The notes below the pieces were generated by a model, which did not search any database, had not been told where the DNA came from, and saw only the letters and a program-made list of their open reading frames with translations. A DNA stretch of 64,000 nucleotides from a virus (lineage: Duplodnaviria; Caudoviricetes): the IMG/VR virus record IMGVR_UViG_3300021399_000098; one strand, 5' to 3'. The translations under genes were made by a program, and so were the position numbers. This document shows, one piece after another, positions 14,688-39,296 of this stretch (position 1 is its first letter; every line of letters begins with the position of its first letter).

Positions 14688-15224
14688 TTAAAAATCCAAG
14701 TCGTTTTCTATTCGTCTGAAATTTCCATATTCATCTTTAACATATTTATTAAAATCTGGGTCTCTGTAAATAGGCTCATCATCTTCTCTATCTATTCTTT
14801 CCCATCCTTTTGGTAGCCTTTCCCTTGTATGATGCTTATATACAGCATCTTCCCAAGGGTCAATACCTTCACTTAATATTCTATTCACTGATTCTTTCAC
14901 AATATTGTGGATGTAGTTTTCTATATTAAGATTTTTAATTTCACGAAACCTCGGTTCAACTTTATCAGTAGGTTTCTGAATTGTAATTGTTGGTAAATTG
15001 TCAAAAGCATCAATTATCTGATTTGCCCTATCATTGGTGGGGTCAGCATCAAGAACTCTGTAAACTTCTTGCATAAAATCCTCTCTGACTTCATCGACAT
15101 TTATAAAAGTGCCTTCCATCGAAAGTTTTTGCTCATCATCACCCTCTTTCAATATTCTGTTAACTGAATTTCTAACTATATTGTGAAGGTCTGATTCTGT
15201 AAGTCTAATTATTTGTTTATCCAT
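14688..15224 (-). CDS. putative internal head protein with two LTESDLH-type motifs
   Basis: MDKQIIRLTESDLHNIVRNSVNRILKE plus an internal IHNIVKESVNRILSE; TATTTATA at 15255-15262. Confidence 0.6.
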   Translation of the reverse strand: MDKQIIRLTESDLHNIVRNSVNRILKEGDDEQKLSMEGTFINVDEVREDFMQEVYRVLDADPTNDRANQIIDAFDNLPTITIQKPTDKVEPRFREIKNLNIENYIHNIVKESVNRILSEGIDPWEDAVYKHHTRERLPKGWERIDREDDEPIYRDPDFNKYVKDEYGNFRRIENDLDF

Positions 15225-15281
15225 TGTTTTTAATTGTTTAGCAATATTATTTCTTATAAATATCAGCCTAAGTAAAAAAAC

Positions 15282-16088
15282 TTATTCCCAAACGTCCAAT
15301 ATTTTCGTAATCAACGGATTTCTAACGATGTCTTCCCTAGTGAACTCTGTCACTCCGACTTCATCCAAGTCTATCAAGTGATTTGCAGCGTATTCAAGTC
15401 CACACTCTGACTTTTTATTCACAATGTCTCGTCTGTTCACTTGTCCGCAATCACCAGTGATGATTACCTTACTGTTCTCTCCAATTCTTGTGAGCAATAG
15501 CTTCATATTGTCTTTTGTATACTGTTCAGCTTCATTCACCAAAATTATTGAATCGTCAAATGTTTTTCCCAATGCATAGTTTATAAATTCATATCTTACA
15601 TACCCACTGTTAATCAAGTTTTGTGCCATTATCGTTGGGTCTCCGTTGCCACTGTTTTTAAGGATTTTTGCAATGGTTTCCTCATCACATTCCTTAAACG
15701 GTCTAGTTTTGTCTTCAAAGTCACCCTTTAGGTAGCCAAGGTTCAAGTCCAAACCTCCTGCTGGTGCTGTAGGAACAATCATTATGATGTTGTTATACCT
15801 ACCTTCTTTAAGCTCCCTTAAGGCAAATGAAAGTGAAATGTAAGATTTACCAGTACCTGGAGCACCGATACCAAAACATATTTGGTAATTTTTGTTTTTC
15901 AAAACATTAAGGAAATCTTTTTGCTTTTCGTTTTTGCACTTAATATCCAATTTAAAACTCAAAGCTTTAAGTTGTGTAACCATTCCGCAAGACGTTAGAT
16001 AATTGAGAGCACTGTCTCCTTTCATCTTGTCTTCGATGAACTGTATGTCCAATTCATCAATTCCTTTAAGATTTTTCTTTTTTCCCAT
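15282..16088 (-). CDS. phoH: PhoH-family ATPase
   Basis: GAPGTGKS, LGYLKG, NEAEQ, LLTRIGENSKVIITGD and DIVRNPL. Confidence 0.9.
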   Translation of the reverse strand: MGKKKNLKGIDELDIQFIEDKMKGDSALNYLTSCGMVTQLKALSFKLDIKCKNEKQKDFLNVLKNKNYQICFGIGAPGTGKSYISLSFALRELKEGRYNNIIMIVPTAPAGGLDLNLGYLKGDFEDKTRPFKECDEETIAKILKNSGNGDPTIMAQNLINSGYVRYEFINYALGKTFDDSIILVNEAEQYTKDNMKLLLTRIGENSKVIITGDCGQVNRRDIVNKKSECGLEYAANHLIDLDEVGVTEFTREDIVRNPLITKILDVWE

Positions 16089-16104
16089 AATTTTTTTAAT
16101 TAAG

Positions 16105-16144
16105 AAAAAAGCGCACTAGTCCATTAAAGAACTAGTGCGCTTTT
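16105..16144 (-). terminator. intrinsic terminator-like hairpin
   Basis: aaaagcgcactagt...actagtgcgctttt. Confidence 0.7.
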
Positions 16145-16225
16145 GATTATGTAGTATTTAATGTTTTATCCATTAGCATTACATTTATATCTATAAATAT
16201 ATAAAAAGTCATTTTTATATTCATT

Positions 16226-17719
16226 TTAAGCGTATTTGTTGTTTAAATCATCTACAATATCGAATGATAAAACGTCATGGTGTATAATGCTATTCATGCC
16301 GTATTTTATTCTTATATCAACGTAATATCTCTGAGGTATTAAGATGTTCGTGTCAATCACATAGAAGTTGTTTGAGAACGACTTATTGACCCTATCCCAT
16401 TCGATTACGTCAATTTCCCTAGTTCCGTCCTTAATGTATAACCTCAAGTCCATACTATCCAACAATTCGTATGTATTGTATGTGTAAGACGGCTTTCCGT
16501 TTATAACTAGTTTCCTTATGTCACCCCTCTTAATCTGTTCCTTCTCCTTTATTCCGTTAATGCTTGGGTTATAGGTTATGTTCTCAGGCTCAAGTGAATT
16601 TCCTATATTGAAGAAATTAGCAGTTTTTTTAAGCGTAAAATCAAGCTCTACAGCCTCTAATTCTGTTCCTTGGTATACTAACCCATCCCACGTGTCATAA
16701 AGCATCCTATCAGCCTCAAAATCGCTCGTAGAGAGTTTTAAATCTATGTAGTAAATTCCTTTTGATTGCTTCTTTGCCTCAACCTCCAATATTTCGTTTC
16801 CATCAGAGTCTTTTATGACCTCATCCTCGTCATTCCTAATGGTTACTTTTGGATTTGAATCCAAATTCTCAAGGTGCTCTCCAATTGTACAGTACAAATA
16901 CAACTTGTTGTTTTTGTTCAGCACAAAATTAGAGCGGTCATCTGAAACAACATCATTATATCTAGTTTCAACAAATGGTTCAAAGAAGGTGTTCGTCTTG
17001 TCTGTAAGCCAACCCACATAGTTCTCCCATTGACTGTCCATCACCTCTAGCATTGGAGAATATGCCATACCAATTCCAAAGTTCTCAAGTTCTCCGCTCA
17101 AGAACTTGTTAAATGTATCTGTAATATCCAAGTTGATGCATTCGTTTCCGTAATCGAAATGTTGCCTTCCGATGATGATGGAATCTTCACCAGCAGCCCA
17201 TTTATCATATTCTTTTGATAGGGTTTCGTTGTCGTAAATTCCAGCTTCATCCCACTTCAATCCATTTTGTCTTTGAAACCAGTTGCATCCTTCTTCAGAA
17301 ATTAACCTTTGTGGGTCAATAGGAGCTGGAGAATAATACCCAGCATTGAAATAAGTTTTTACATAGTTAAATCCTTTACCCCTATCCCAAGGCTTTGGAA
17401 TAAGGAAAAATATGATGTCAAATGACGCAGCTCTGATTTTTTTATTGTCATTGATTGAACTAGTTTCACACATATGCAACTGTGTGAAATCAGTAGAACT
17501 TGCATTGGTGATATGAAGAGTGTGCTTCATCTTATTTATGTCAATCATAATACCATCGTCAATAAGTTTCTTAACCTTACTGTGGTCGAAATAGAACAAT
17601 GCCCTAGACACTATCGTATCGCGTCCATAAACAAGCTCAGACACAGGATTCAATCCAGTGTTGATTTTACTGTTGCTTACAATAGTGTTGAATTTAGATA
17701 TGTATGTCTTATAAACCAT
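16226..17719 (-). CDS. putative virion structural protein
   Basis: 497-aa beta-rich ORF; TATTTATA at 17737-17744. Confidence 0.55.
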   Translation of the reverse strand: MVYKTYISKFNTIVSNSKINTGLNPVSELVYGRDTIVSRALFYFDHSKVKKLIDDGIMIDINKMKHTLHITNASSTDFTQLHMCETSSINDNKKIRAASFDIIFFLIPKPWDRGKGFNYVKTYFNAGYYSPAPIDPQRLISEEGCNWFQRQNGLKWDEAGIYDNETLSKEYDKWAAGEDSIIIGRQHFDYGNECINLDITDTFNKFLSGELENFGIGMAYSPMLEVMDSQWENYVGWLTDKTNTFFEPFVETRYNDVVSDDRSNFVLNKNNKLYLYCTIGEHLENLDSNPKVTIRNDEDEVIKDSDGNEILEVEAKKQSKGIYYIDLKLSTSDFEADRMLYDTWDGLVYQGTELEAVELDFTLKKTANFFNIGNSLEPENITYNPSINGIKEKEQIKRGDIRKLVINGKPSYTYNTYELLDSMDLRLYIKDGTREIDVIEWDRVNKSFSNNFYVIDTNILIPQRYYVDIRIKYGMNSIIHHDVLSFDIVDDLNNKYA

Positions 17720-17749
17720 TTTACTTTTAATTTATATATAAATATCAAA

Positions 17750-17784
17750 AAAAACGAGTTTACATCGTCTGCAAACTCGTTTTT
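17750..17784 (-). terminator. intrinsic terminator
   Basis: aaaaacgagttt...aaactcgttttt. Confidence 0.7.
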
Positions 17785-17803
17785 ATAGTTATGTTATGTT
17801 TTT

Positions 17804-20800
17804 TTAATCACCACCCTCAATTATGTCAAGGATTCTGTCATATTCACTTTCAAGTGCTGAAATTTTACTGCTGTGCTGAGTGTCTTGCTGTGTTGACCTA
17901 GTTGCCTCAGACGTTAGGTTAGACTCCAATGCAGCTACTCTAGCTTCCAATGCAGATAGTTGACTTGTCAAACCACTTATGATTGCGTTCTTTGAAACGT
18001 ACAATGCATTTGCGTCAATTGATGCAGCATTATCATCGTGTGTGTTGTTAAGAATCAATCTAGCTTTCAAAACGTCTTCACTTGATACGTTTCTTTCCTT
18101 GGTCAACTCAATTGCTCCTTGGTGTCCATCTTCAGCTCTCCACTCTTCGATTAAGTCGCCTACTGGAACTCTAACGTCTTCCTTTCTAGCACCGTTTACA
18201 GTGTACTCAATTACAATCTCTTCATTTGGTTTGTCATAATAGATATTGTTTATTTCTGACTTACTCTTGAGCTTAATTGACGTAGTACCAATTGTATTGG
18301 TGAACAAAAGCTCATTGTCTTCCTCATCATATGCTAGGCTAGCATTTGCATAGATACCGTCAGCATTTAGTTTAATGATTTGTCCTTCACTTGTGCTGAT
18401 ATTAACACCAACTGCTGGTCTTGTTGCATTCGTGTTGTCAACTGTAATTGACGCATCCTTTGCAGTAATAGCTTCAAGCTTATTTAATACACTGTTTTCC
18501 AATGCAGTAACCCTTGTATCGAGTGCTGTGTCGGCAGTTTCTCTAGCTCTTGTCTCTTCTGTGATTGTGCTGTTAAGTTCAGCATCAGCAGCCTCACGAG
18601 TATTAGCCTCGTCTGTTACGGTAGCAGCAATTGCAGCGTCCTTTGCGTCAACTTCTGACTTAGAATAGAAATCTGTAGGTATTTCTTCCTTAGTTGCAAA
18701 CTTGTTGTCAGCCTCAGCCTTGTAATATACATCTACTGAATTTGCTTTGGTTGTTAGTGTATTTTCCAACAACATGTCAGCGTTTTGTCTAGCAGATGTT
18801 TCGTTATTCAACTGTGTCTGCAACGTAGTGATTTTTGCATTAAGCTCAACGTCAGCAGTTGTCAATGTGTTGATTTGAGTCTGCAATGCAGCATCGGCAG
18901 TTGACCTGTTGCTAGTTTCTGTAGCCAAGTCATTGCTAACTTGAGTGATGTATCTGTTCAAGCTCTGGTCAGCATCTTCTCTTGCAGTCTGCTCTCTAGC
19001 GATTTGCAAGCCCAATGCAACGTCTTCGTTCTGTCTTGTTGAAGCTTCATTGTTGATTGCCGTCTGTAAAGCTGAATCAGCGTTTTCTCTAGCGATAGCC
19101 TCAGTTGAAATTGCATTTGTCAATTCATTGTCTGCTGCTAGTCTCTCTGCTTTCTCTTGAGTGATTGCTGCTTCCAACAAAGCGTCTTTAGACTCTCTTG
19201 TAAGCTTCTCTAAGTCTAAGTCATTCTTGATGCCATCAATTCCTTCAACCTTCAAGCCTGCGCTAGATACGGTTAAATAGCTTTCAGATGCTGAATCAAC
19301 CTTAACGCTAACTTCACCTGCGCTGTTGACTTTAAGTCCATCTTTGAACTCAGCCTCAACTAAGAATATTGAAACGTCAAGGTATTCTTCTTTTTCAGTT
19401 CCGTCTTCCAAGATATAGGTGAACTTCAAGAACTGGCCTTCTCTAGAGCCATAATGGTCTACAAGTTCAACGTCCTTCAATGAAGAGTCCTTATAAACCT
19501 TAATCATTTCACCTAGCTGCTCACCACCAGCATTTGTAAGCTTATAGGCTTCTCTTACGTTTGCATCGAGTCCAATGGTTACTTTTTCAATCTTGACCTT
19601 ATTAGCCTCTATTTCGTCTGATAATGCTTCATCAGCAGCTTCCCTTGCAGCAACTTCAGCAGCAATAGCAGCTTCCAATTCAGCATCTTTGTCTGCTCTA
19701 GCTTGTGCCTCGTCAGCATCAGCTTGTGCCCTTGCAGCAGCTTCCTCATCGATTGCAGTCTGCAAAGCGGTGTCAGCAGATTCACGGATAGCAGCTTCAT
19801 TATCAATTGCCTCTTGTAATGCATTGTCAGCAGCTTCTCTAGCAGTAGCTTCCTCATCTATTGCGTTCTGCAAAGCGGTATCACCAGAAATTCTCTCAGC
19901 TTTTTCAGCTTCAAGTGCTTCCTCTAATGCAGTGTCAGCAGACTCACGGATAGCAGCTTCCTCATCTATTGCGTTCTGCAAAGCGGTATCAGCAGAAATT
20001 CTCTCAGCTTTCTCTTGCTCAAGTGCTTCTTCTAAAGCGGTGTCAGCAGATATGCGCTCTGCTTTCTCTTGTTCAAGTGCTTCTTCTAAAGCGGTGTCAG
20101 CAGAAATTCTTTCAGCTTTTTCCTCTTCCAATGCTTCCTCAAGGGCTGTGTCAGCAGATATGCGCTCAGATTTCTCTTGTTCTAAAGCTTCCTCAAGTGC
20201 GGTGTCAGCGGAGATGCGTTCAGCTTTCTCTTGCTCAAGAGCCTCTTCAAAGGCTTCTTCTAAAGCTGTGTCAGCAGATATGCGCTCTGCTTTCTCTTGC
20301 TCAAGTGCATCTTCCAATGCGGTATCAGCAGAGATACGTTCAGCTTTCTCTTGCTCAAGAGCCTCTTCAAGAGCACTATCACCAGAGATACGCTCTTCCT
20401 TCTCTTGTTCCAAAGCCTCTTCTAGAGCAGAGTCACTAGAAATGCGTTCTTGTATTTCTTCCTCAAGTGCTTCCTCAAGTGCAGAATCACCAGAGATACG
20501 TTCAGCTTTTTCTTGTTCTATCATTTCGATGATAGTTTCTCCGCTTGTGAAAGCTGAAATAACTTCCCAAATTTCTTGGTCAGCAGCTTCTCTTTCGGCC
20601 TTTTCTGTGTCGATTGTCTCAACTAGGTCATCAAGAGGAACTTCAACAAAGTCATCATTATCGAATGTAACAGTGATGTTTTTTGTTTCTGAATCGTAGC
20701 TAGCATTTTTAATTAAGTCAGAAGGATATACGTCTGACAACTTTGCGCTTGCGATTTTATCACCATTATCGTTCTTGAAGACAAAAGACTTACTGTTTCT

Positions 20801-20977
20801 ATCGTATTCAACACCAAAGAATGCGTCAGCTAGAATCTCTTCAATTTCCTTTTCAACGGTTGAACCTGACCCACCTTGACCATCTATGATAGCTTGGCAA
20901 ATCATATTACCTTCGCTCATATACTTGTTTTGCTCCCTGTAGCCATATGGCTGTTGCATTCTGTTTCCTTTATTCAT
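17804..20977 (-). CDS. long coiled-coil fibre-like virion protein with tandem repeats
   Basis: Repeated EQEKAERISADTALEEAL units and AR.AD..L heptads. Confidence 0.7.
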   Translation of the reverse strand: MNKGNRMQQPYGYREQNKYMSEGNMICQAIIDGQGGSGSTVEKEIEEILADAFFGVEYDRNSKSFVFKNDNGDKIASAKLSDVYPSDLIKNASYDSETKNITVTFDNDDFVEVPLDDLVETIDTEKAEREAADQEIWEVISAFTSGETIIEMIEQEKAERISGDSALEEALEEEIQERISSDSALEEALEQEKEERISGDSALEEALEQEKAERISADTALEDALEQEKAERISADTALEEAFEEALEQEKAERISADTALEEALEQEKSERISADTALEEALEEEKAERISADTALEEALEQEKAERISADTALEEALEQEKAERISADTALQNAIDEEAAIRESADTALEEALEAEKAERISGDTALQNAIDEEATAREAADNALQEAIDNEAAIRESADTALQTAIDEEAAARAQADADEAQARADKDAELEAAIAAEVAAREAADEALSDEIEANKVKIEKVTIGLDANVREAYKLTNAGGEQLGEMIKVYKDSSLKDVELVDHYGSREGQFLKFTYILEDGTEKEEYLDVSIFLVEAEFKDGLKVNSAGEVSVKVDSASESYLTVSSAGLKVEGIDGIKNDLDLEKLTRESKDALLEAAITQEKAERLAADNELTNAISTEAIARENADSALQTAINNEASTRQNEDVALGLQIAREQTAREDADQSLNRYITQVSNDLATETSNRSTADAALQTQINTLTTADVELNAKITTLQTQLNNETSARQNADMLLENTLTTKANSVDVYYKAEADNKFATKEEIPTDFYSKSEVDAKDAAIAATVTDEANTREAADAELNSTITEETRARETADTALDTRVTALENSVLNKLEAITAKDASITVDNTNATRPAVGVNISTSEGQIIKLNADGIYANASLAYDEEDNELLFTNTIGTTSIKLKSKSEINNIYYDKPNEEIVIEYTVNGARKEDVRVPVGDLIEEWRAEDGHQGAIELTKERNVSSEDVLKARLILNNTHDDNAASIDANALYVSKNAIISGLTSQLSALEARVAALESNLTSEATRSTQQDTQHSSKISALESEYDRILDIIEGGD
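19770..20520 (-). repeat. imperfect 54-bp (18-aa) coding tandem repeat
   Basis: Recurring gtgtcagcagatatgcgctc / aaagcggtatcagcaga units. Confidence 0.85.
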
Positions 20978-21006
20978 TTTTCAAATATTTTATTAGTTAT
21001 AGTTTA

Positions 21007-23007: not shown

Positions 23008-23100
23008 ATTATTTAATATATTTAACTAGTTAATTTACTATAAATATCTTCTGTCATTTAAAAAAACAAATGCAATAGAGATTTTCTATTGCACTTATCT

Positions 23101-23643: not shown

Positions 23644-23645
23644 AA

Positions 23646-24434: not shown

Positions 24435-24535
24435 ACAAAGAAACATTTTATATAAATATTTTCAAAAAAACATTTGTCTAGCTATTGATTTTTCAAAATA
24501 AAATATTATATTTTATTAATAAAATATAATATTTT

Positions 24536-28331: not shown

Positions 28332-28332
28332 T

Positions 28333-28611: not shown

Positions 28612-28872
28612 TTAGTAAAAATCTTTCATAAGTCTAGCTGGTCTTTTATTAACCGTACTTCTACCAATTTCTTTCAATATTTTATTCACAGACTCTTTAA
28701 CCATTTTATGAAGGTCTGATTCAGTTAGTCTTATAAGTTTCTTTTCTGTTTTCTTTGATTCTGCTTGTATGTTATTTTCTTTTTGTTCTTTTGAAGCTTG
28801 GTACATTTTTCCAAATCCCATAGCTTGTGCTAATTCAAATCCGTTTTTAAAAGGTAGTGCCATATTATTCAT
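28612..28872 (-). CDS. small protein carrying an internal LTESDLH motif
   Basis: KKLIRLTESDLHKMVKESVNKILKE. Confidence 0.6.
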   Translation of the reverse strand: MNNMALPFKNGFELAQAMGFGKMYQASKEQKENNIQAESKKTEKKLIRLTESDLHKMVKESVNKILKEIGRSTVNKRPARLMKDFY

Positions 28873-30271
28873 TATTTAATTGTTTCATTATTCCTTCGTA
28901 CATGAAATCTGCGACCTTCATAATAGAGTCAAAGACATCACTACAATTGCTTACGTTCATACCCCAATTGGCTAGGTAGTTAAAATGTTCTTGTTGACTT
29001 TCGTATCCTAATCCGCTCAAGACTAGCCAAGCACATAATTCAGCTTCTTGTTCAACAATATCTCTGCCTCTTAATGCGCTACCACCTCTATAAAACTTTT
29101 TAAGGTTTGGGTTTGTAGTGTGAACAACTTCCCAATGCATAATCTGATGCGCGGTTTCGTGTATTACTGTACTAAGCAATCCATGATTTCTTTTATCGTC
29201 AACGATTCTTACATCGCCATCAATACTAGCATAACCCCTAGAGCCACCAAGTTTGCTTTTATCAATAAATTCATAGCTTCTTACGCCAATTGATTTACCA
29301 AAACTAACACAAGCATCTATAAGAATCTTTTCTTTTTCGGTTTCATCACTATCTGCGTCATACCACTTGAAATTGTTTTCAGGAAATTCTTCTGCTCCTT
29401 CTCCCTTAATCAAATCCGAAATATCATATGCTATATAGTCTTTAAAACCGCCTTGTGTGTCTGGATATTTTGTTTCTCTGTCCAACCTTCTTTTTTGTGA
29501 TGGTGTTAATTCACTAATTGCTCTAACTCCTTCTCTATTAAGGAATTTCCTTACAATCTCATCATATTGAGCGCCATAAAACTTTTTGAATGATGCTGGT
29601 CTTGCCAAAACAATAGGTGTTGCGTCTGGTTTTGGCGTATAACCCATATCATTCCATTCGCCTTTTGAACGTACATCAGTTGCATTTCTTTTTTGTAAGA
29701 AAATAAGAATTGTATTTAGGAATGATAATTGATGGCCTCTATGTTTTGACATTTCAATTCTGAATCTAGACAATTCAGCCAAAGCCTCCATCGTCTCTCT
29801 GCTTCCAACACCTTGAATAAGTTTTTTCTTAAATTCCTCGGCATTGTCAATAATACCACTGCCATTAATACGAACTTGGCCACTTGCTTGCGCTTTCATA
29901 ATGACATCCTTCAATTGTTCGATTGATGCCAATACTTCTTCAATTGTTCTGTTATTCCCATTTTCTGGTGGCGTTTCTTGACTTCCAATTTCTTCAGCGA
30001 ATTTTTTTATTAAAGGATAAACCTCTTGTTCGCTTCCATCCCAAACAATCCATCCCCAAGCCTTTGGAACACCTTGTATGTTTCGTATATATCTGTTATA
30101 TGGTAGGTATTCCATACCATATTTTTTCATTAGCTCTTTGTTATCAAATGTGCTATCAGTTGACATATTAGGGTCAACATACACCAATTTGAAGCCTTTT
30201 CCGTTTTTCGTTCTTAAAACTGAATCATTCGTAGCTAACTCGTAATATTCTCTAATTAAACGCTTTTTCAT
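28865..30271 (-). CDS. ArdC-like ssDNA-binding domain plus HExxH metallopeptidase (polyvalent-type protein)
   Basis: LSFLNTILIFLQ..ATDV....W..MG (ArdC-N like); HETAH...EQEAELCA (zincin). Confidence 0.75.
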   Translation of the reverse strand: MKKRLIREYYELATNDSVLRTKNGKGFKLVYVDPNMSTDSTFDNKELMKKYGMEYLPYNRYIRNIQGVPKAWGWIVWDGSEQEVYPLIKKFAEEIGSQETPPENGNNRTIEEVLASIEQLKDVIMKAQASGQVRINGSGIIDNAEEFKKKLIQGVGSRETMEALAELSRFRIEMSKHRGHQLSFLNTILIFLQKRNATDVRSKGEWNDMGYTPKPDATPIVLARPASFKKFYGAQYDEIVRKFLNREGVRAISELTPSQKRRLDRETKYPDTQGGFKDYIAYDISDLIKGEGAEEFPENNFKWYDADSDETEKEKILIDACVSFGKSIGVRSYEFIDKSKLGGSRGYASIDGDVRIVDDKRNHGLLSTVIHETAHQIMHWEVVHTTNPNLKKFYRGGSALRGRDIVEQEAELCAWLVLSGLGYESQQEHFNYLANWGMNVSNCSDVFDSIMKVADFMYEGIMKQLNNE

Positions 30272-30654: not shown

Positions 30655-30674
30655 AATTGTTTTTTTTTAGTTAA

Positions 30675-31160
30675 TTAATCATCCCAAGAACCTTCATCCC
30701 AGTCATCATCATGCCATTCCATTTCTTTATTTCTGAGCATATCTGAAAGTGGACTATTTGTAATTGGTCTTCCCATTTCGTCATATCCAATAATATAAAC
30801 TCCAGGAAATAACTCTTTGCCAATTCCATTTCTTCCTATTTTACCATCAATTACATTACCATTATTATATCCTTTCGTAAATCCCCTATTTAAACGCTCA
30901 GGATGGGCTTTATTGTATTCACGGTAGTAACCTTTCCTATGGCGGTCTTTTTGTTGTTTAGATGGCTTAATTTTAGGCTTATTTGTGGGATTTTGTTTTT
31001 CTGCTTCTTTAGCAGCTTTTTGTTTTGCATAACGCTCTTTCCAATAGCCTTCTCTATGACGGTCTAGTTTATCTTTAAAATATCCTTCTCTATGTCTATC
31101 AGCTTCAGAGATTATTTTATTAATTTCTTCTTTTATAATTTTTCTAATATTCATAAGCAT
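30675..31160 (-). CDS. basic protein with three DRHR(E/K)GY repeats; putative internal head protein
   Basis: Start is probably 31154 or 31160 (MNIRKIIKEEINKIISE); TATTTATA at 31168-31175. Confidence 0.55.
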   Translation of the reverse strand: MLMNIRKIIKEEINKIISEADRHREGYFKDKLDRHREGYWKERYAKQKAAKEAEKQNPTNKPKIKPSKQQKDRHRKGYYREYNKAHPERLNRGFTKGYNNGNVIDGKIGRNGIGKELFPGVYIIGYDEMGRPITNSPLSDMLRNKEMEWHDDDWDEGSWDD

Positions 31161-31179
31161 TTTTATATATAAATATAAT

Positions 31180-32856: not shown

Positions 32857-32970
32857 ATAACTTATATTTTTATAGTGCAAAGATATATATTTTTTTCTAA
32901 TTTTCAAACATTTATCAATTATATATAATAAATATCAGAAAAAAATAAAAAGGGTTGGATAAAAACGATA

Positions 32971-33004
32971 AAAAATCTTGAGCGATTTCTCACCCAAGAT
33001 TTTT
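32971..33004 (-). terminator. terminator after the major capsid gene
   Basis: aaaaatcttgag...cccaagattttt imperfect hairpin. Confidence 0.6.
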
Positions 33005-33029
33005 ATATAAGTTACTGAAGTTCAGCGAT

Positions 33030-35072
33030 TTATCTAAACTCATTAATTGACCAATGTACAAGTCCATCAACACGTACATGTCCATAATAGCGGTTGTTAA
33101 CCATCTTCTTCGCATAACGTGTCATAATTCCCTTTACTGGTGCAAAGTTGAATGGGTTATACATAGTAGGAGTTAACTGCATTGGCACATATGGTGCATA
33201 GATGTAACCTGTGTCAAGAAGTGACTTACCCTTATGACCGATGATAATTGACCAGTGAGGTGAATATGGGTCACGATAAACAGTGTAACGTGCGTTCAAT
33301 GAACCAATCTTCTCAATACCCATATTGTACTGGTCGCTCTCTGCTGATGCGTCTGAAACGTGGAAGTACTCAAGGTTGTCGAACAATGCGCTAATTTCTG
33401 AAGATACAACTATGAAGTTTGCACCACCACGAAGAGTTGACTTGTGAATCTGTGCAGAAATCTGGTTAATCTTAGTCATAAGCTCTTGGTTCCAGTCCTT
33501 CTGAGTGTAGTTAGTTGAGAATGCTGCCATACGTCTCCAACCGTTAACATCCCAACGAGCCTGCCAAGGTGCACCCTTACGAAGGTCACGAAGAATTTCA
33601 CGGTCAATTTCTGCTGCAATCTGCTCTGAAAGGATAGCGGTCAACTCAGCCTCTGCGTCAATGTTGTGGAATGCAGAAACGTCTTGTGCCAACTCTGGTG
33701 ACCATGTAGCACGAAGCTTTCTTTCCTCAACTGATACTGTTACTGAATCAAGCTTGAAGCTAACCTCACCGATTTCGGTCTCAAGCTCAAGAGAATCATA
33801 CTGTGCCCAAGCAATCTTGAACAAACTTGCAATATTTTCCTTAGTTGCCTCGTAGTCGATAGAACCGCCAGTGGTCTTAACGATTTCTGCGTCTAAAGCA
33901 GCAGCGTCAACACCAATGTAACCATCGATAGTACCTGCTTGCTGGATAACTGGTTTAGCCAAATCCAACTCAATATACATCTTACCTTCAGCATCGCAAG
34001 CTGCACCGTATTCTACGATACCCTTACCATACTTCTGAGTAACAACTCTGAAAGGAACAGACTCGAACTTACGGAAAGCTGCGGTCTTAACAGTGTCAGA
34101 ACCAGGAGCATTAGCTGCTGCGAATTCCTTCTGAGTGATAACCTTCAAAGAAGCCAAGAAACCTTCGGTATCCATTTCGTTACCATCAGGACCAGTCAAC
34201 TTTGATGCGTTGAATGATGAGAAACCATCAATCTCAAGAATCAAGTTACGGATAGTTCCGTCAAATCCACTCTGGAAGTACATGTTCAAGTTGTCAGCGC
34301 CAAAAGGACGAACACCACCAGGGGTTAGGAATACTGGAACAGCACCACCAACCTTGATAGTAACCTTACCCTTTGAGTTGTCATACAAGAAGTCGTTGTA
34401 GAATAAGTCATACAAACTCTTCTGGAAATACTGAGTTACCTCTGGACCTGCTTGACGAAGAGCAGTTACACCAAGACCTTCAGCAGCAGCACGCTCTTTA
34501 GCTGCATCGAAGTCGGTTGCATCCTCAAGAGTCTCGTTCAACTGTGGAACGTACCATGAGTTCTTGTCAAGTTCACTTACAGTCTCGTCTGGAAGATAGT
34601 AACGTGGTTCAACACGGCCTTCCTTGTTACGGTTTACACGGTCATAACCCATGAGACCCTTGTGACGACCAGTAGTGCCATCGATGATGTCACCAGGAGT
34701 TGCGCCAGTTGCATCCTCTGGAAGTTCCCACTCTCTCTCTGAAGTAACAGGGAGGATGAAGAACAACTTACCAACTGGAAGGTTCATAGCTTGAACTGAA
34801 ACGATGTCATTAGCAAGCAACTTGCTAAATACACGTCTAATGATTGGGAAAACAACGGTCTCAAATGAACCGCTATTGTCTGAAGCAGTAGCCTCGTAAA
34901 TCAAGTGCTTTGCCTCATTTTCGTACAATGTAGCAACATTCTCCTTGATACCCTCTGGCAAACCTTCGGTAAAGCCGAGCTGGTCCCAGCGGTTCTGAAT
35001 GTCCTCACGTATCTGTCTTTGTGCGTTGTACTCGATATTACCAACTACACCACTTGATAGAAATTCCTTCAT
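33030..35072 (-). CDS. major capsid protein (T4 gp23-like) with a large insertion
   Basis: IRRVF..L.A.DIVSVQAM..PVG, RKLRATWSPELAQD..AFH.IDAEAEL, EIDREI, YAPYVP and GIMTRY. Confidence 0.95.
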   Translation of the reverse strand: MKEFLSSGVVGNIEYNAQRQIREDIQNRWDQLGFTEGLPEGIKENVATLYENEAKHLIYEATASDNSGSFETVVFPIIRRVFSKLLANDIVSVQAMNLPVGKLFFILPVTSEREWELPEDATGATPGDIIDGTTGRHKGLMGYDRVNRNKEGRVEPRYYLPDETVSELDKNSWYVPQLNETLEDATDFDAAKERAAAEGLGVTALRQAGPEVTQYFQKSLYDLFYNDFLYDNSKGKVTIKVGGAVPVFLTPGGVRPFGADNLNMYFQSGFDGTIRNLILEIDGFSSFNASKLTGPDGNEMDTEGFLASLKVITQKEFAAANAPGSDTVKTAAFRKFESVPFRVVTQKYGKGIVEYGAACDAEGKMYIELDLAKPVIQQAGTIDGYIGVDAAALDAEIVKTTGGSIDYEATKENIASLFKIAWAQYDSLELETEIGEVSFKLDSVTVSVEERKLRATWSPELAQDVSAFHNIDAEAELTAILSEQIAAEIDREILRDLRKGAPWQARWDVNGWRRMAAFSTNYTQKDWNQELMTKINQISAQIHKSTLRGGANFIVVSSEISALFDNLEYFHVSDASAESDQYNMGIEKIGSLNARYTVYRDPYSPHWSIIIGHKGKSLLDTGYIYAPYVPMQLTPTMYNPFNFAPVKGIMTRYAKKMVNNRYYGHVRVDGLVHWSINEFR

Positions 35073-35138
35073 ATAATTTAATAAATTATTTTTAAGTTAT
35101 TTTTTTATTATAAATACACACAAAAATCAAAAAGTGCT

Positions 35139-36656
35139 TTATTTCATCATTCTGTGCATCAAATCAAGAGAATCTAACATGTCAGGCGACTTGTAGATAG
35201 TTGTCTCATTGATTTTCTTTGAACCTTCAACCGTAAGACTCTTGTCTTCAGTGATGTTCATTTTATTTGATTTCTTTAGGTCACGACTGATGGATTCGTA
35301 AAGATTCTTAGATGCCTCAATTGTTTTAGCCTCCTTTGAGAATCTAGAAATGATTTCTTTCTTCTCATCTTGTGAAGTTGAATTTTCAGAAATCAACTTG
35401 ATAATCTGTGCAAGATTATGGTTGGTTACAGCAGCTTCCTTCAATGACTGCATAACGTCAGTCAAAGTGGTCTTAAGCTCCTTGTTCTCAGAAAGAGCCT
35501 TGTTTGCTCTTCTCATGAAGCTCTCGTTGGTCTTCTCATCACCATTGACAGTAACGGTAACATCTACATCGCCACTGTTGTAACGAGGCGTTGCAGTGCC
35601 CTTAACTCTACTGCCACCCTTACTCATAGAACGAGCGTTACGTCCGTTTGAGTTAGGAACGTGAGACTTAGATGTGCTGTTCTGTTGAACAAAACCACCA
35701 ACGTTAGTAGCCTCTTCTATGTTCTCTTCCTCAAGTTGCTTACCCTTGCTGTCGTTGAATGGCTTGTCTGCCTTATTTTTCTTGCTGCCTTTATATCCTG
35801 ACCAAGGCTTTTCAGTTCCATGAGGAACACCTGCATCCCAGTCGTTTACATTCTTGCCTGGTTCTGACATACCTGGATTGGTCATTACATCCTTTTTCTG
35901 ATAATTGTCAGTGTATCCTACGTTTGAATCATACTCTAAAACTAACTCAAACATTCTTTCTGTTGATTCATTCATATCGTCATAATCATTATTTTCAAAA
36001 TCATCTTCTGCACTGTCATCAGTAATTACTTCATCGTCACTTTCGACTCCAGTTGCTTCACCTTCGTCATCAAGTTTGATTAGGTACTCAGCTCCAGTTT
36101 CATTGTCTTGAATGTTGACATTTCCATTGTCATCTTTATGAACAAGAATCTGGTCATCATTCTTCATTAATTTGTAAACCTTTACGATTTCCTCGTCTTC
36201 CGCATTTGTAAAGTCATACTCATCGTCTGATATTTTGTACTTGTCAAAATCAGCCCATTCATCGCCATCTTCGCCCTCATCTTCTACACCGTCAATTGCG
36301 TCATCTACTTCGCCCTCATCGTCAGTTTCACCTGCGACTTCATCAGACTCCATATCTTCATCACCTTCAGTGTCAGCAGAATCAGCGTCCGTACCAGCGT
36401 CAGTGCCTTCTACGCCATCCGTAGGAGCTTCACTTGATTCGGCATCATCTGTAATATCAGAACTAGTATCTTCCACTTCCTCTTCTTCGTAGTCCTCATC
36501 ATTGCCCTCAGACAATAACTTGGCATATGTATCACGCACAGCTTCATCCAAAAGGGTCTTGACTGCGCTTTCGGTATTTTCCCTCAAAGAGTTTGCGAGT
36601 GTGTTGTAATCTAATAAAGATTCTCTAACTACTTTGCTTCTAATATTTTTGCTCAT
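35139..36656 (-). CDS. prohead core scaffold protein (gp22-like)
   Basis: Acidic low-complexity and coiled-coil sequence directly upstream of MCP; many xxE-S motifs. Confidence 0.7.
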   Translation of the reverse strand: MSKNIRSKVVRESLLDYNTLANSLRENTESAVKTLLDEAVRDTYAKLLSEGNDEDYEEEEVEDTSSDITDDAESSEAPTDGVEGTDAGTDADSADTEGDEDMESDEVAGETDDEGEVDDAIDGVEDEGEDGDEWADFDKYKISDDEYDFTNAEDEEIVKVYKLMKNDDQILVHKDDNGNVNIQDNETGAEYLIKLDDEGEATGVESDDEVITDDSAEDDFENNDYDDMNESTERMFELVLEYDSNVGYTDNYQKKDVMTNPGMSEPGKNVNDWDAGVPHGTEKPWSGYKGSKKNKADKPFNDSKGKQLEEENIEEATNVGGFVQQNSTSKSHVPNSNGRNARSMSKGGSRVKGTATPRYNSGDVDVTVTVNGDEKTNESFMRRANKALSENKELKTTLTDVMQSLKEAAVTNHNLAQIIKLISENSTSQDEKKEIISRFSKEAKTIEASKNLYESISRDLKKSNKMNITEDKSLTVEGSKKINETTIYKSPDMLDSLDLMHRMMK

Positions 36657-36830
36657 TTAGAAAATATTTTTAATACATTATTTTAAATATAAATATAGCA
36701 CAAATACAAAAAAATTACGTTAAATCCCTAAAATAATAGCATTTAACTGTTTTTTCATACCTGCATTATATATAAGCTATTATATAAATATTTACATTGT
36801 CTCAAATATTTATAATAAAAAAATACTAAA

Positions 36831-37568
36831 ATGGAAAAAAACGAGCTAGATATACAGTTATTGAAAGCAGGTGTTAGAAGACCTGATTTGGAAATCATTA
36901 AAGAAGGAAAAACAGGTCATGGCATCCTAATTGAACACGATGGATATATGTACATCAAAGAAAACAGACAAATTAAAGAAAGTCTTGAAAACGGTGAGTG
37001 GCATGTTCCATACCCATTCATTGTTGACGCTGTGTTCCAAAAATTTGGAATAAAAAACGCAAACGGAAGAATATATCCTGAAGAAGTTTTGAAAAAACAA
37101 GTTGAATTATATCAACAGAAAATTGATGAAAGAAGAGCAATAGGTGAGTTAAATCACCCAGCAGAGTCAACAATTGACCTTGATAGAATTGCAATCAATA
37201 TCATAGAGCTTCATTGGGAAGGCAGAACACTAGTTGGAAAACTTGAAATAAACACTTCATATGGCTTCAGAAAACATGGAATAGTTTCAACTCGCGGAGA
37301 CCAAATGGCCAATTTGCTACTCAATGGAATAAAGATAGGAGTATCTTCTAGAGGTGTCGGTTCTGTAGAGCAAAAATTAGGACAATATATCGTTGGTGAC
37401 GATTTTGAACTAATCTGTTGGGATGTTGTTAGTGACCCTTCAACTCCAGGTGCTTACGTTGGACAACCAGAGGAATTGCAACAGTATGTTGAAAATGACA
37501 CAACAAACAAAGGAAAATCAGCCATCAATGAAAAAATAAATAAGATTAAAAGCATACTTAATTCATGA
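36831..37568 (+). CDS. prohead maturation protease (T4 gp21-like)
   Basis: NANGRIYP, GELNHP, GVSSRGVGS and DVVSDPSTPGA. Confidence 0.93.
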   Translation: MEKNELDIQLLKAGVRRPDLEIIKEGKTGHGILIEHDGYMYIKENRQIKESLENGEWHVPYPFIVDAVFQKFGIKNANGRIYPEEVLKKQVELYQQKIDERRAIGELNHPAESTIDLDRIAINIIELHWEGRTLVGKLEINTSYGFRKHGIVSTRGDQMANLLLNGIKIGVSSRGVGSVEQKLGQYIVGDDFELICWDVVSDPSTPGAYVGQPEELQQYVENDTTNKGKSAINEKINKIKSILNS

Positions 37569-37718
37569 AAATTATAATCACTGAACAAGGAAAATTTAAG
37601 GCAATGATATAGCAGTTGACCCACAATAATTTAGCAAATGTAGTCAAAAATAACTACCTTTTTTTTTTACTTATAGTTATTTTTATTATTAAAATAACAA
37701 ATTAAAACGTATTATAAT

Positions 37719-38042
37719 ATGAATAAGAAACTAATTAGATTAACAGAATCAGACCTTCACAAGATTGTGAAAGAGTCGGTAAAAAGGGTGCTTAAAGAAG
37801 ATGATACTCAGAATTTGGGTATAAATAACTATGACCCTACTAATTATGATGAACTTACTATGAAGATAAAGGCTATAATGTCAAAAGTAAGTGAAATAAG
37901 AAATATGATAGAGGACATTTCCACAAGCCAACTTGATGTTGCTCAAAATGCTGGAAATTTGGATGGTCTTGCTGAAGAACTTTATAGGCAACTGCGATAT
38001 ACATTGCATAAAGCCAATACAAGTAACTACATAGAAGCTTAA
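37719..38042 (+). CDS. putative internal head protein (LTESDLH motif)
   Basis: MNKKLIRLTESDLHKIVKESVKRVLKE. Confidence 0.6.
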   Translation: MNKKLIRLTESDLHKIVKESVKRVLKEDDTQNLGINNYDPTNYDELTMKIKAIMSKVSEIRNMIEDISTSQLDVAQNAGNLDGLAEELYRQLRYTLHKANTSNYIEA

Positions 38043-38150
38043 GCAGCCACAAGACCCACTCTAATCTCAGACCATTTACGAAAATTTTAGCTAAAAAATT
38101 TGCTTTTTGAAAAATAATTCTTATATTTTATATATAAGAATTATTTTTTT

Positions 38151-38585
38151 ATGAAACGATTGAACAAAGAATACAAACTAGATGTATGCAATCATGTGAT
38201 TGTAAAATATGGGAGTGTCAACAAAGACAATCCACAAGTTATTTATGTGAGCGGAAAATGCTGGGTGTCCCCCAAAACTCAAATGGACTATGAATATGTC
38301 ATATCGAGTATAGAGAAAGAAATGAAAAAAAACATAAAGTTATTCTTGATTGACGAGATAAATTTTATTAATAGGTTTATATTGGATTTTGACATCAACA
38401 CAGATAAATTCAATATTGGCGATAAAAAGTTTCTATCCTTTGATTTTTATCTGAAGCAGAATGATTCTGATATAAAGAAACTAAAGGATTTGAAAGAAAT
38501 GCTTTCTAATAAAGTAAGCACGGTTGTCAACAACTTAGTTTACCTTTTCAAGGAAAATGGCTTTACTGTGGAGAAAAGAAAGTAA
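38151..38585 (+). CDS. hypothetical protein
   Basis: 144-aa ORF; TTTG-N19-TATATTTT upstream. Confidence 0.6.
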   Translation: MKRLNKEYKLDVCNHVIVKYGSVNKDNPQVIYVSGKCWVSPKTQMDYEYVISSIEKEMKKNIKLFLIDEINFINRFILDFDINTDKFNIGDKKFLSFDFYLKQNDSDIKKLKDLKEMLSNKVSTVVNNLVYLFKENGFTVEKRK

Positions 38586-38621
38586 TCTTATGTTATATTT
38601 ATATTAAAATATAAATTAAAT

Positions 38622-38879
38622 ATGAAAAAAAGAATTAAACTTACAGAACAAGATATTCATAAAATAGTTAAAGAAACAATTAAAAATGTTCTAAACGAAA
38701 GTGATATTTATGAATATGATGCTAATTATGAACAGCTTATTAAAAATGAAATGCATAATTTATATGATTTAGAGGGTAAAGTCCCCTATTCATATAGGCA
38801 AGAGATACATTCTATGGTAAATACTCTACAAGGAATATTATCCAGTATTAGAATGAATGATTCCATATCAAGTATTTAA
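38622..38879 (+). CDS. putative internal head protein (LTEQDIH motif)
   Basis: MKKRIKLTEQDIHKIVKETIKNVLNE; TATTTATA at 38596-38603. Confidence 0.6.
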   Translation: MKKRIKLTEQDIHKIVKETIKNVLNESDIYEYDANYEQLIKNEMHNLYDLEGKVPYSYRQEIHSMVNTLQGILSSIRMNDSISSI

Positions 38880-38918
38880 CAAGTAGGGTCAAATAATATA
38901 TAATTACCTAAATTAAAT

Positions 38919-39296
38919 ATGAAAAAGATTATAAGATTAACAGAATCTGATTTACATAGGATTATTAAGAATTCAGTATCTAGGATATTAAAAGAAGATA
39001 TTCTAGGAAATGACTGGCATCAAGGTGATGATAATTCAGTCATGAACAACTATGAGCCATTTGATGGCCAGATTGATAGATATGAGGCTGAGAATGAATT
39101 CAGAAATCAGCACGATTGGGGAGCAGAGGGAGAAGAGCAATTTGACCCAACACATTACAACCAAGACGGCAACGTACTAGGTTGGAATGATGATGAAGCA
39201 GAAGGGTATGAAGAAGACCCAGATTGGTATAGGAATGATGTAAATCCGATTAACGATAGTCCGTCAGATGGAGATTTATATCATGGTACGTTGTAA
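38919..39296 (+). CDS. putative internal head protein (LTESDLH motif) with an acidic payload
   Basis: MKKIIRLTESDLHRIIKNSVSRILKE followed by an Asp/Glu-rich region. Confidence 0.6.
   Translation: MKKIIRLTESDLHRIIKNSVSRILKEDILGNDWHQGDDNSVMNNYEPFDGQIDRYEAENEFRNQHDWGAEGEEQFDPTHYNQDGNVLGWNDDEAEGYEEDPDWYRNDVNPINDSPSDGDLYHGTL

Follow-up and report, generated by a model that had tools for sequence, protein, structure and literature searches.

A modular N-terminal leader on unrelated proteins of T4-like Prevotella phages: a candidate tag for capsid targeting and protease release

Our results show that a short protein leader, found on five genes of a 64,000-nt viral sequence (the window, by which we mean the whole stretch of DNA analysed), defines a very large undescribed family of 5,398 clusters at 50% identity. 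The window is part of a T4-like phage of about 400 kb that infects rumen and gut Prevotella. Judged by sequence, the leader genes belong to a phage with a predicted T4-type prohead protease, major capsid protein (MCP) and portal (Table 1). The best reading is that the leader would direct proteins into the capsid, where the protease would release them; we give this about an even chance of being right. Some leader genes are also passengers of IS1595-family elements, which is new here and had been missed by the earlier note on this DNA.

Conservation and modularity of the leader

Besides five full copies of the leader, the window has a degenerate internal one and another that has decayed. In a profile search of the six-frame translation, the full and degenerate copies reached E values of 1e-13 to 1e-20 (3e-18 to 3e-20 by domain), and beyond the accepted copies no score was better than E 0.015. 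The earlier note had described such a module in these five genes, with a second partial copy in gene A. Both are present, the full module reading K-x-(I/L)-(R/K)-L-T-E-(S/Q)-D-(L/I)-H-x-(I/M)-(V/I)-(K/R)-x-(S/T)-(V/I)-x-x-(I/V)-L-x-E. The consensus is M-N-K-K-L-I-R-L-T-E-S-D-L-H-R-I-V-K-E-S-V-N-R-I-L-K-E. Conservation acts on the protein and not on the DNA: where residues are identical, their codons agree in only 48% of pairs.

The two L-x-E motifs are the most conserved features of the leader. The Glu of LTE is conserved in 100% of cases and the terminal Glu in 94%, and conservation ends directly after the latter. We also aligned the window leaders with the diverged form from LR756508, a distant T4-like phage of 484 kb (MCP identity 42%). 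In this alignment L2, E4, L19 and E21 are the sole invariant columns, and they make up the two motifs.

By itself [LI]-x-E is frequent, at 1.7% per position. Shorter relatives had been proposed at the start of other genes (a kinase, MKKIYINE, MKRIIMSE, MKDIINEVINE and MKKRLIRE), and we reject these as chance: their HMM scores are at noise level (E 5–9), and [LI]-x-E within residues 6–13 is found in 8 of 59 untagged window proteins, near the 12.6% expected. The one exception is the gene at 30675–31160 (MNIRKIIKEEINKIISE), a true decayed member. Here the leader has decayed while the payload stayed; P0344, its probable orthologue judging by the alignment, carries a full leader on the same payload.

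Table 1. Leader-tagged genes and associated features of the window.
Feature	Position	Strand	Evidence
Tagged gene A, 178 aa; N-terminal leader and acidic payload holding a second, degenerate leader	14688..15224	-	HMM domains E 2.8e-20, 3.3e-18; payload pI 4.6
Second, degenerate leader inside gene A (NLNIENYIH...ILSE), no preceding Met	14853..14948	-	
Leader of gene A, residues 1-27; LTE at residues 8-10, ILKE at end	15144..15224	-	
TATTTATA box, 30 nt upstream of gene A ATG	15255..15262	-	
Tagged gene B, 86 aa; leader internal, payload cut to ~15 aa	28612..28872	-	
Leader copy within gene B, residues 44-73	28657..28746	-	HMM E 3.5e-19
Decayed member; N-terminus MLMNIRKIIKEEINKIISE keeps second half of leader only	30675..31160	-	marginal HMM E 0.015-0.02
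TATTTATA box, 7 nt before ATG of decayed member	31168..31175	-	
gp23-type MCP	33030..35072	-	alignment to T4 gp23
TATTTATA upstream of prohead protease gene	36807-36814		
T4-type prohead core serine protease (Peptidase_S77), proposed processing enzyme	36831..37568	+	PF03420, E 6.8e-24
Left terminal inverted repeat of decayed IS1595-family element	37600..37624	+	one match at <=3 mismatches, none expected
Tagged gene C, 107 aa; passenger of a decayed IS; leader 37719-37799; payload a helical hairpin	37719..38042	+	HMM; AF2
Remnant of IS1595 transposase gene 3' end (last 13 codons and flanking bases)	38039..38083	-	tblastn residues 313-325, 77% identity
TATTTATA box, 18 nt upstream of gene D	38596..38603	+	
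Tagged gene D, 85 aa; leader 38622-38699	38622..38879	+	HMM E 7e-18
Tagged gene E, 125 aa; leader 38919-38996; payload very acidic, aromatic-rich	38919..39296	+	228 relatives; pI 4.05

Structure prediction presents the leader as a modular, autonomous unit on unrelated payloads. In two AF2 models the helix at the N-terminus is free and a floppy linker joins it to the payload; the payloads are unrelated, with no shared fold. In the model of gene C, helix 10–26 is followed by a linker (28–35, pLDDT <50) and by helices 43–69 and 74–104; in that of gene E, helix 9–25 has a pLDDT of ~84 and the remainder (~55) is predicted to be mostly disordered. Payloads are hypervariable, small, mostly acidic (median pI 5.8) and often helical or disordered, and almost none has a recognisable domain. 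No Pfam family occurs in more than two of 150 representative proteins; a single fusion to a SAM lyase (PF23780) lies outside the window. The earlier idea of a plug-in tag for loading diverse effectors survives in part. The modular leader, the unrelated payloads, the strict conservation of the two L-x-E motifs and the arrays flanking the protease gene are consistent with a tag, but effectors as its cargo are unsupported.

Of 320 instances of the leader, 223 stand at the N-terminus and have the LTE Glu as residue 9 or 10, and nearly all of 102 strict-motif matches at 80 viral loci have a Met 5–8 residues before LTE. In about 41 instances (~13%) the leader is truly internal, a feature that had been overlooked, and some proteins carry multiple copies. 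Gene B, whose start overlaps the stop of 28865–30271, is one case in which the module is not simply followed by unrelated sequence, as had been said of every copy. Its leader is internal and its payload truncated, therefore it is probably a decayed cassette. The N-terminal 40 residues of gene B have no orthologue in related genomes; the module alone finds relatives.

Gene arrangement and a possible route into the head

Three tagged genes lie just downstream of the prohead protease gene, as originally noted, and leader genes also adjoin the protease gene in G003, G005 and G011:C8. An S77 protease is present in every leader-rich phage genome tested. Complete T4-like phages of 387–413 kb have 9–19 leader genes per genome, and the range across all phages counted is 9–29; we found no cultured phage carrying the leader. 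In LR756508, about 20 leader genes in tandem flank the protease gene. Such arrays in two deeply diverged lineages add weight to the capsid-targeting reading.

A typical cassette consists of a TATTTAT(A/T) box 15–40 nt before the ATG, a leader of 26–27 residues, a flexible linker and a hypervariable payload. The box occurs at 26 sites in the window (6.2 expected) and stands before capsid, portal, protease, scaffold, terminase and fibre genes. Because of this position upstream of structural genes we infer that it is a late promoter. That the tagged genes sit behind such boxes is true for some of them: an exact TATTTATA stands directly upstream of two of the five, and a third lies in an operon behind the box at 31168–31175.

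If the leader targets the capsid, it would be a prohead-targeting propeptide acting like the capsid-targeting sequence (CTS) of T4: late in infection it would dock its protein to the core of the head under assembly. Cuts by the S77 protease would then follow after L-T-E (residues 8–10), after the terminal (I/L)-x-E (residues 25–27), or after both. The payload, set free within the capsid, would pass into the next host together with the DNA, and internal leader copies would be cut points in small polyproteins. Counting against this reading are the frequency of [LI]-x-E by chance, the truly internal copies, the decay of a leader whose payload persists, the mostly acidic payloads and the intact copies in host chromosomes that lack the protease. 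The MCP may offer a guide to the specificity of the protease: the sole [LI]-x-E between its conserved delta-domain block and the mature core, L-I-Y-E before A (residues 57–60), is likely the maturation site.

Transposition and copies in host chromosomes

Some cassettes move by transposition and leave single copies in host chromosomes. About 13% of leader genes, including gene C, show a trace of IS1595-family elements, of which they are passengers. As in known passenger-carrying members of this family, a DDE_Tnp_IS1595 transposase with a zinc ribbon (PF12762/PF12760) goes with terminal inverted repeats of 25–36 nt, 8-bp target duplications and one or more passengers between. IS1595 subgroups with passenger genes are recorded in ISfinder. 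Unlike in those, the passenger here is a leader-tagged hypervariable gene with an upstream box of the structural-gene type, and the element moves back and forth between jumbo phages of one clade and their host; a limited literature search found no description of such passengers. The inverted repeat near gene C also bounds elements in L049, L084, L023, L082 and L136, and the transposase remnant meets the gene C stop at a conserved TTAAGCAGCC junction. Some cassettes move as transposase-less derivatives of 660 bp.

Cultured Prevotella sp. MA2016 and Segatella bryantii DSM 11371, both of which lack an S77 protease, have intact copies in their chromosomes. The leader occurs in 10 of 401 genomes of the host bacterial family, and host copies are singletons. 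The box is retained upstream of all six chromosomal cassette genes examined. One chromosomal island holds two leader genes, whose neighbours include MazG, an RF-1-domain protein and a large helicase-like protein; neither an IS nor phage head genes were seen close by. Outside T4-type surroundings, too, an IS1595 passenger gene bears the leader, for example beside a phrog_2 terminase.

These protease-free chromosomes, non-T4 contexts and island neighbours, together with the SAM lyase fusion, would suit a different explanation. The leader could be a docking or oligomerisation helix of accessory proteins of Prevotella mobile elements (phages, IS, islands) that stay in the cytoplasm and are never packaged. 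Such proteins might serve anti-defence or host takeover, and L-x-E would be a structural feature of a strand-helix unit, not a cut site. SAM lyase is a cytoplasmic anti-restriction enzyme; anti-defence genes are usually early. Conservation covers about three of the four faces of the leader helix and extends to polar residues, as would fit a peptide bound in a groove, and multi-copy proteins could be multivalent. Nevertheless, we consider this explanation clearly less likely than capsid targeting, yet the strongest of its rivals. It leaves unexplained why the two L-x-E motifs alone are invariant across lineages, with conservation ending at Glu, why the genes gather around the prohead protease in two deeply diverged phages, and why cassettes keep a box common to structural genes. 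Copy number also differs, from singletons in hosts to 9–29 in phages.

Comparison with known systems

In T4, the CTS of IPI, IPII, IPIII and Alt and the propeptide of gp24 are removed by the gp21 prohead protease. T-even IP family proteins are basic. The sites cut by gp21 are (L/I)-x-E, processing of IPIII depends on residues 8 and 10 of its CTS, and the CTS is already described as a route for T4-like phages to load varied proteins (PMC9026906). Like the CTS and the 10-residue gp24 propeptide, our leader is a short N-terminal extension of unrelated proteins in a phage with an S77 protease, and its (L/I)-x-E places Glu at residue 9 or 10 and Ser directly after it. In the T4 record, gp23 has FLTE before AEIGG (residues 62–65) and gp24 starts with MAKINELLRE before S, while the leader reads MNKKLIRLTE before S. 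In LR756508 LTE lies at residues 3–5, therefore the parallel at residue 10 is not general. As with the CTS, payload genes differ between related phages (PMC9026906, PMC5694885).

There are also differences. The leader shows no sequence similarity to the T4 proteins it was compared with: scores against gp21, gp22, gp24 and gp67 are at noise level (gp67 E 0.82), and gp23 and gp68 are absent among the matches listed. The leader has 26–27 residues, of which 17 form a conserved helix, and it ends in a second L-x-E. Genomes carry 9–29 leader genes where T4 has three or four, most payloads are acidic, and some leader copies are internal, transposon-borne or in host chromosomes. The paralogous, propeptide-bearing inner-body or ejection proteins of the giant phages phiKZ, 201phi2-1 and SPN3US are head-internal and also have conserved N-termini and diverged remainders, with processing by a gp21-like protease; SPN3US gp53 and gp54 share an identical 15-residue start, and several protease motifs can lie within one propeptide (PMC5694885). 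Unlike our leader, those propeptides mostly exceed 100 residues and use an A/S/G-x-E motif, and in capsid gene content their phages do not resemble T4; no transposon link has been described for them.

The tagged proteins could also be dispensable prohead core or scaffold accessories that are targeted to the core, help or tune head assembly and are degraded by the protease at maturation, not delivered. T4 genes 67 and 68, directly beside gene 21, encode small, partly acidic proteins of this kind, which join the core and are cut by gp21. Leader genes occupy the same position, and their payloads lack enzyme domains and resemble gp67 in acidity. We regard this as improbable. Hypervariable, non-homologous payloads, transposon mobility and a copy number that varies from 9 to 19 among close relatives are unexpected for assembly parts, the T4 genes being single-copy and conserved; the leader has no detectable homology to the T4 core proteins, and one relative carries an enzyme, the SAM lyase.

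That the 5' module serves the transposon, as a transposase-binding cofactor or regulator or as a homology arm for payload swaps, is very improbable: IS-linked payloads are indeed bounded exactly by the module and the transposase stop (with a TTAA overlap), and phage contig L069 is 95% identical in nucleotides to the MA2016 chromosome along the 699 bp that run up to the module, with unrelated payloads beyond it and then a transposase end of 82% identity, but most module genes have no IS trace, four of five complete phage genomes keep 9–19 well-conserved leaders without an IS1595-family transposase, synonymous codons vary freely, and we found no IS link in the LR756508 family.

Capsid targeting with protease release remains the best reading of the leader. 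Since tagged genes are carried by IS1595 elements and are found in protease-free host chromosomes, the system is not a purely phage-internal address tag.

A leader shared by unrelated proteins

The repeated module described in the earlier note is real. Motif scanning in all six frames, together with a profile HMM, detects five full copies in the window, in genes A to E (see table), and one degenerate second copy within gene A. The HMM domain E-values of the window copies lie between 3e-18 and 3e-20, and nothing else in the six-frame translation scores better than E 0.015. The leader forms the start of the ORF in four copies. The gene B copy is internal and has only about 15 residues after it; a search for relatives of the 40 residues preceding its module found none elsewhere, and we read this gene as a decayed cassette (box, leader, linker and payload). 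A seventh member, also decayed, starts with only the second half of the leader (HMM E 0.015–0.02). Its probable orthologue, protein P0344, has the same payload and a full leader.

One could argue that the repeat arose at the DNA level, by recent duplication or gene conversion. A codon comparison rules this out: copies that share a residue share its codon in only 48% of pairs. Hence, the module is maintained at the protein level.

The earlier note also listed several gene starts as shorter relatives of the leader. Apart from the decayed member, these score at noise against the HMM. Once the tagged genes are removed, 8 of 59 untagged window proteins have [LI]-x-E within residues 6–13, against 12.6% expected. 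Together, the HMM and this frequency test exclude the shorter relatives from the family. By eye, the start of a 1,666-aa polyprotein, MSKTVRFSEDSLIMIKNRLNE, looks like a shortened leader, with no significant score against the leader HMM. Many [LI]-x-E sites of this polyprotein have the form I-x-E-S (INES, IIES, ITES, ISES), comparable to the LTE-S of the leader.

The family is large. A profile of a 32-residue stretch matches 5,398 cluster representatives among 1.84 billion at E ≤1e-3, whose genomic context we sampled through 80 viral and about 35 bacterial loci; 894 match at E ≤1e-10, the top-ranked ones being biased towards the profile that found them. Five complete relatives carry 9–19 copies per genome. 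The logo of 316 aligned instances reads (N/M)-K-K-L-I-R-L-T-E-S-D-L-H-(R/K)-I-V-K-E-S-V-(N/K)-(R/K)-(I/V)-L-(K/N)-E. The first Glu (in LTE) is conserved in 100% of instances and the last (in the terminal L/I-x-E) in 94%, and conservation ends abruptly right after it. In all, 320 instances come from 261 representative proteins. Of these instances, 223 are N-terminal and place the LTE Glu at residue 9 or 10, 56 look internal although a Met stands at the canonical position, and the remaining 41 or so are truly internal.

What follows the leader differs from protein to protein. In a Pfam scan of 150 representatives no family is common to more than two; the payloads are mutually unrelated, match Pfam only sporadically (e.g., Zn ribbons) and have a median pI of 5.8. 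Scans of the tagged proteins found no family in Pfam, NCBIfam or annotated PHROGs that covers the leader, and an ESM Atlas search returned unnamed viral clusters only. There is no real leader match among the cultured phages of INPHARED; the cultured phages Mel-JY01, immuto and SCTP-2 are without it. The JGI names of two leader proteins, "EutJ chaperonin" (P0271) and "LuxS" (P0322), appear to be spurious automatic annotations, as these proteins of 99–107 aa have no such domains recorded.

AlphaFold2 models of genes E and C have an extended stretch of 8–9 residues at the N-terminus, followed by a helix (residues 9–25 in E, 10–26 in C; pLDDT ~81–84). Beyond it come a low-confidence linker and then disorder (E) or an independent helical hairpin (C), with pTM of 0.22–0.28. 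Since the helix is free in both models and the linker has low confidence, the leader is predicted to be an autonomous unit outside the payload fold. The strand and helix pattern could suggest a ribbon-helix-helix protein. This is ruled out: conservation ends after residue 27, where a disordered linker follows, there is no second conserved helix, and no ribbon-helix-helix family in Pfam matches up to E 1.

Positions of the features discussed (L, fetched locus; G, genome or contig set; IS, IS1595-family element)
Feature	Record	Position	Description
Gene A	window	14688-15224 (-)	leader gene
Gene B	window	28612-28872 (-)	leader gene
Gene C	window	37719-38042 (+)	leader gene, IS passenger; stop followed by conserved TTAAGCAGCC junction and last 13 transposase codons
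Gene D	window	38622-38879 (+)	leader gene
Gene E	window	38919-39296 (+)	leader gene
Seventh member	window	30675-31160	decayed
Polyprotein	window	48785-53785 (-)	start MSKTVRFSEDSLIMIKNRLNE
Candidate sigma gene	window	9620-10396	
Example box sites	window	35109-35116, 36688-36695, 36807-36814, 40563-40570, 42683-42690	5' of structural-gene ATGs
Decayed IS	window	37600-38083	just downstream of prohead protease gene; transposase and right repeat gone
Left inverted repeat	window	37600-37624	one survivor of decayed IS
L049 element	L049		28-nt inverted repeats, 89% complementary; spans 1,519 bp
L084 element	L084		36-nt inverted repeats; spans 2,533 bp
L136 element	G002:C1	236702-237361	660 bp, no transposase; inverted repeats, 8-bp duplication ATTATTTA, 170-aa leader gene only
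(I/V)R(L/V)SNH domain	L119	within 9596-10624 (-)	upstream of leader
(I/V)R(L/V)SNH domain	L122	within 5681-6511 (-)	upstream of leader
(I/V)R(L/V)SNH domain	L125, L069, L104		upstream of leader
Leader arrays	LR756508.1 (L164, L165)	143-163 kb, 186-196 kb	
Chromosomal island	G040:C22 (L126)	~96.9-100.2 kb	also L148, L149

Head genes, the upstream box and T4-like relatives

The window has a GC content of about 35%. Between 33 and 45 kb it encodes a gp23-type major capsid protein (MCP; PF07068 E 8e-73), a portal (PF07230 E 2.5e-88) and a large terminase, both of T4 type, and a prohead protease of the Peptidase_S77 family (PF03420 E 6.8e-24). This gp21-type protease is present in every leader-rich genome tested. 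By MCP, the nearest cultured relatives are Microcystis phage Mel-JY01 and the Flavobacterium immuto phages, at only ~40% identity; contigs of 387–414 kb from rumen and gut metagenomes carry orthologues of the tagged proteins. L-I-Y-E|A is the only [LI]-x-E of the window MCP that lies between its conserved delta-domain block and its mature core. Hence, it is plausible that the phage has retained the T4-type protease specificity.

The box TATTTATA occurs at 26 sites in the window, against 6.2 expected. Genes for the MCP, scaffold candidates, protease, portal, terminase and fibres have it 15–37 nt upstream of their ATG. Its extended consensus is aATATTTATAtnAAAA. It is absent from the coding strand of the plus-strand metabolic and replication blocks at 1–9.4 kb and 24.5–28.6 kb. 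Genes A and D have the box directly before them, and gene B and the seventh member via an operon. Of 27 leader genes in two complete relatives, about 8 carry the box in exact form and several others carry TATTTATT. Judging from its position, the box would be a late promoter. The reverse complement of TATTTATA is TATAAATA, the core of T4 late promoters. The gene proposed in the earlier note to encode a late sigma factor has no Pfam match.

In T4, internal proteins carry N-terminal propeptides of 10–19 residues, which direct them to the prohead core and which gp21 cuts off (PMC9026906; PMC5694885). Processing of the capsid-targeting sequence (CTS) of IPIII needs residues 8 and 10, and the CTS has already been proposed as a route by which T4-like phages load varied proteins (PMC9026906). 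The leader resembles these N-terminal targeting peptides with (L/I)-x-E in its predominantly N-terminal position. The T4 record contains FLTE|AEIGG at the gp23 maturation site, and the start of gp24, MAKINELLRE|S, is similar to the leader start MNKKLIRLTE|S. The leader HMM nevertheless shows no relatedness in sequence to T4 core proteins: run against six T4 head proteins (gp21, gp22, gp23, gp24, gp67 and gp68), it gives E 0.14–0.82 for gp21, gp22, gp24 and gp67 among the matches listed, which do not include gp23 and gp68.

A distant T4-like phage, the uncultured 484-kb LR756508, has an MCP that is 42% identical and a diverged form of the leader with LTE at residues 3–5 (e.g., MRLTERRLKKIVKEEIDKVLQE). 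When its leaders are aligned with the window copies, the two L-x-E motifs are the only invariant columns. About 20 small leader-type genes stand in tandem on both sides of its S77 protease gene, and more lie ~30 kb away, in arrays far denser than that of the window. Array genes start with M-(K/R)-(L/I)-(T/S/Q)-E-x-(K/R)-L-(R/K)-x-(I/V)-(I/V)-(R/K)-E-E, and the protease domain they surround lies within a 574-aa ORF. Leader genes also adjoin the protease gene in the window, in two other genome sets (G003, G005) and in a 25-kb contig whose MCP is 66% identical. In T4, the small core genes 67 and 68 occupy this position beside the protease gene. The comparison with LR756508 is the strongest new support for a putative capsid-targeting role.

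IS1595-family elements and copies in Prevotella chromosomes

Our results also show that some leader genes lie within transposons. In 16 of 80 viral loci, and in the bacterial chromosomal ones, the leader gene and a transposase gene of the IS1595 family (PF12762 E 4e-45, with an N-terminal zinc ribbon, PF12760 E 2e-9, in L123) are convergent. A full-length transposase adjoins module genes in at least 15 loci. The two stop codons often overlap in TTAA; elsewhere only the last 30–35 transposase codons are left. Terminal inverted repeats of 25–36 nt enclose the transposase and its passenger leader gene. Perfect 8-bp target duplications flank four of the five elements checked (L084, L023, L049 and L136 of G002; none in L082). 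The L136 element lies in a complete 401-kb phage genome and looks like a MITE-like mobile gene cassette. The decayed element around gene C retains ~45 nt of the 3' end of the transposase.

Only a minority of leader copies can be explained by the IS, because the TTAAGCAGCC junction occurs in ~13% of leader ORFs of the fetched loci (25/194) and an intact transposase in one of five complete phage genomes. That single intact copy is not beside a leader gene. No relevant publication on passenger genes of IS1595 elements in Prevotella or Bacteroides turned up in a literature search.

In several IS copies a domain of 170–215 aa stands in frame before the leader. It contains a conserved (I/V)R(L/V)SNH motif and matches no family of Pfam, NCBIfam, PHROGs or the ESM Atlas. 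The canonical leader-start Met is always present behind it, so that one or two protein products are possible. L123 and L124 have a different upstream domain, unrelated to the first. In the decayed IS of Segatella bryantii DSM 11371 (L118, ~3.246 Mb), the stretch from the left repeat to the leader gene also holds two small divergent ORFs (64 and 124 aa), the shorter with its own TATTTATT box. L103 and L082 share this block, and L127, L099 and L090 have a looser version of it.

A degenerate DNA pattern of the leader matched 25 records in a bacterial genome collection, mostly Prevotella or Bacteroidales MAGs. They include two cultured strains with one copy each, S. bryantii DSM 11371 and Prevotella sp. 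MA2016, and the S77 protease is absent from both. In the bacterial family of S. bryantii, 10 of 401 sampled genomes have a match, nine of them a single one. TATTTAT(A/T) lies 18–31 nt upstream of the ATG at all six leader genes examined in chromosomal loci, and before only a handful of other ORFs in the same 116 kb.

The MA2016 chromosome matches a 279-kb phage contig at 95% nucleotide identity along 699 bp, a stretch that ends with the leader. Beyond it the payloads are unrelated, and the transposase end is 82% identical. Hence, payloads are swapped between conserved flanks, and the host of the phage clade is very probably Prevotella.

The leader also occurs in a chromosomal island of a Bacteroidaceae-family genome, with housekeeping genes downstream and no IS or phage head genes seen. 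Two diverged leader genes lie in this island, and one of them is fused to an S-adenosylmethionine lyase (PF23780); MazG-like, RF-1-domain and 1,374-aa helicase-like proteins are encoded nearby. By eye, upstream ORFs of the island resemble Sir2 and ADP-ribosylglycohydrolase genes.

Possible roles of the leader

What could the leader do? A tag that is targeted to the head core and processed by the protease is the best explanation, one in which we place about as much belief as doubt. It would account for the invariant L-x-E pair, the edge of conservation at the Glu, the N-terminal anchoring, the free-helix architecture, the clustering at the protease gene, which recurs across two deep lineages, and the structural-gene-type box, kept even in host DNA. 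Copies in host chromosomes would then be spillover from transposition. Delivery into the next host, and with it the label "effector", is pure inference.

Alternatively, the leader could be a docking helix that acts in the cytoplasm. The transposon and chromosomal copies show that the cassette needs no T4-type head in the same genome, which disfavours a strictly phage-internal tag and keeps the docking helix alive as a possible, if rather unlikely, explanation.

It is very unlikely that leader proteins are components of the prohead core that are degraded and not delivered. That the leader serves a transposon-centred role is extremely improbable; transposons carry some of its copies and explain a minority.

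The transposon might even be a vehicle for capsid cargo that ferries ready-made cassettes between jumbo phages via the host chromosome, an idea we consider distinctly doubtful. The cassette would combine a promoter box of the phage structural-gene type, a capsid leader and a swappable payload. Until infection by a phage of this clade, chromosomal copies would remain silent; the late transcription machinery of the phage would then switch them on, and their products would be loaded into its capsids. Proteins encoded by host or transposon could thus ride in, or sabotage, progeny virions.

The concept of a capsid-targeting leader is already known from T4 and phiKZ-like phages. New are this leader family, its scale, and the second L-x-E with the helix. 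New above all is mobilisation by IS1595, which shuttles cassettes with a putative promoter between jumbo phages and hosts.

Should the leader be a capsid tag, it would label thousands of proteins, most of them without known fold or function, that jumbo phages of gut and rumen bring into the cell along with their DNA. These would form a catalogue of candidate anti-defence or takeover factors of the first minute, and the leader may become a tool for loading foreign proteins into Bacteroidota phages. Whatever its role, the sequences show that complete phage cassettes, putative promoter included, are moved by a transposon between a jumbo phage clade and the chromosomes of cultured Prevotella. Such traffic gives T4-like genomes a mechanism for their "plastic periphery", links uncultured 400-kb phages directly to a host, and makes it possible to test gene flow from phage to host and back to phage.
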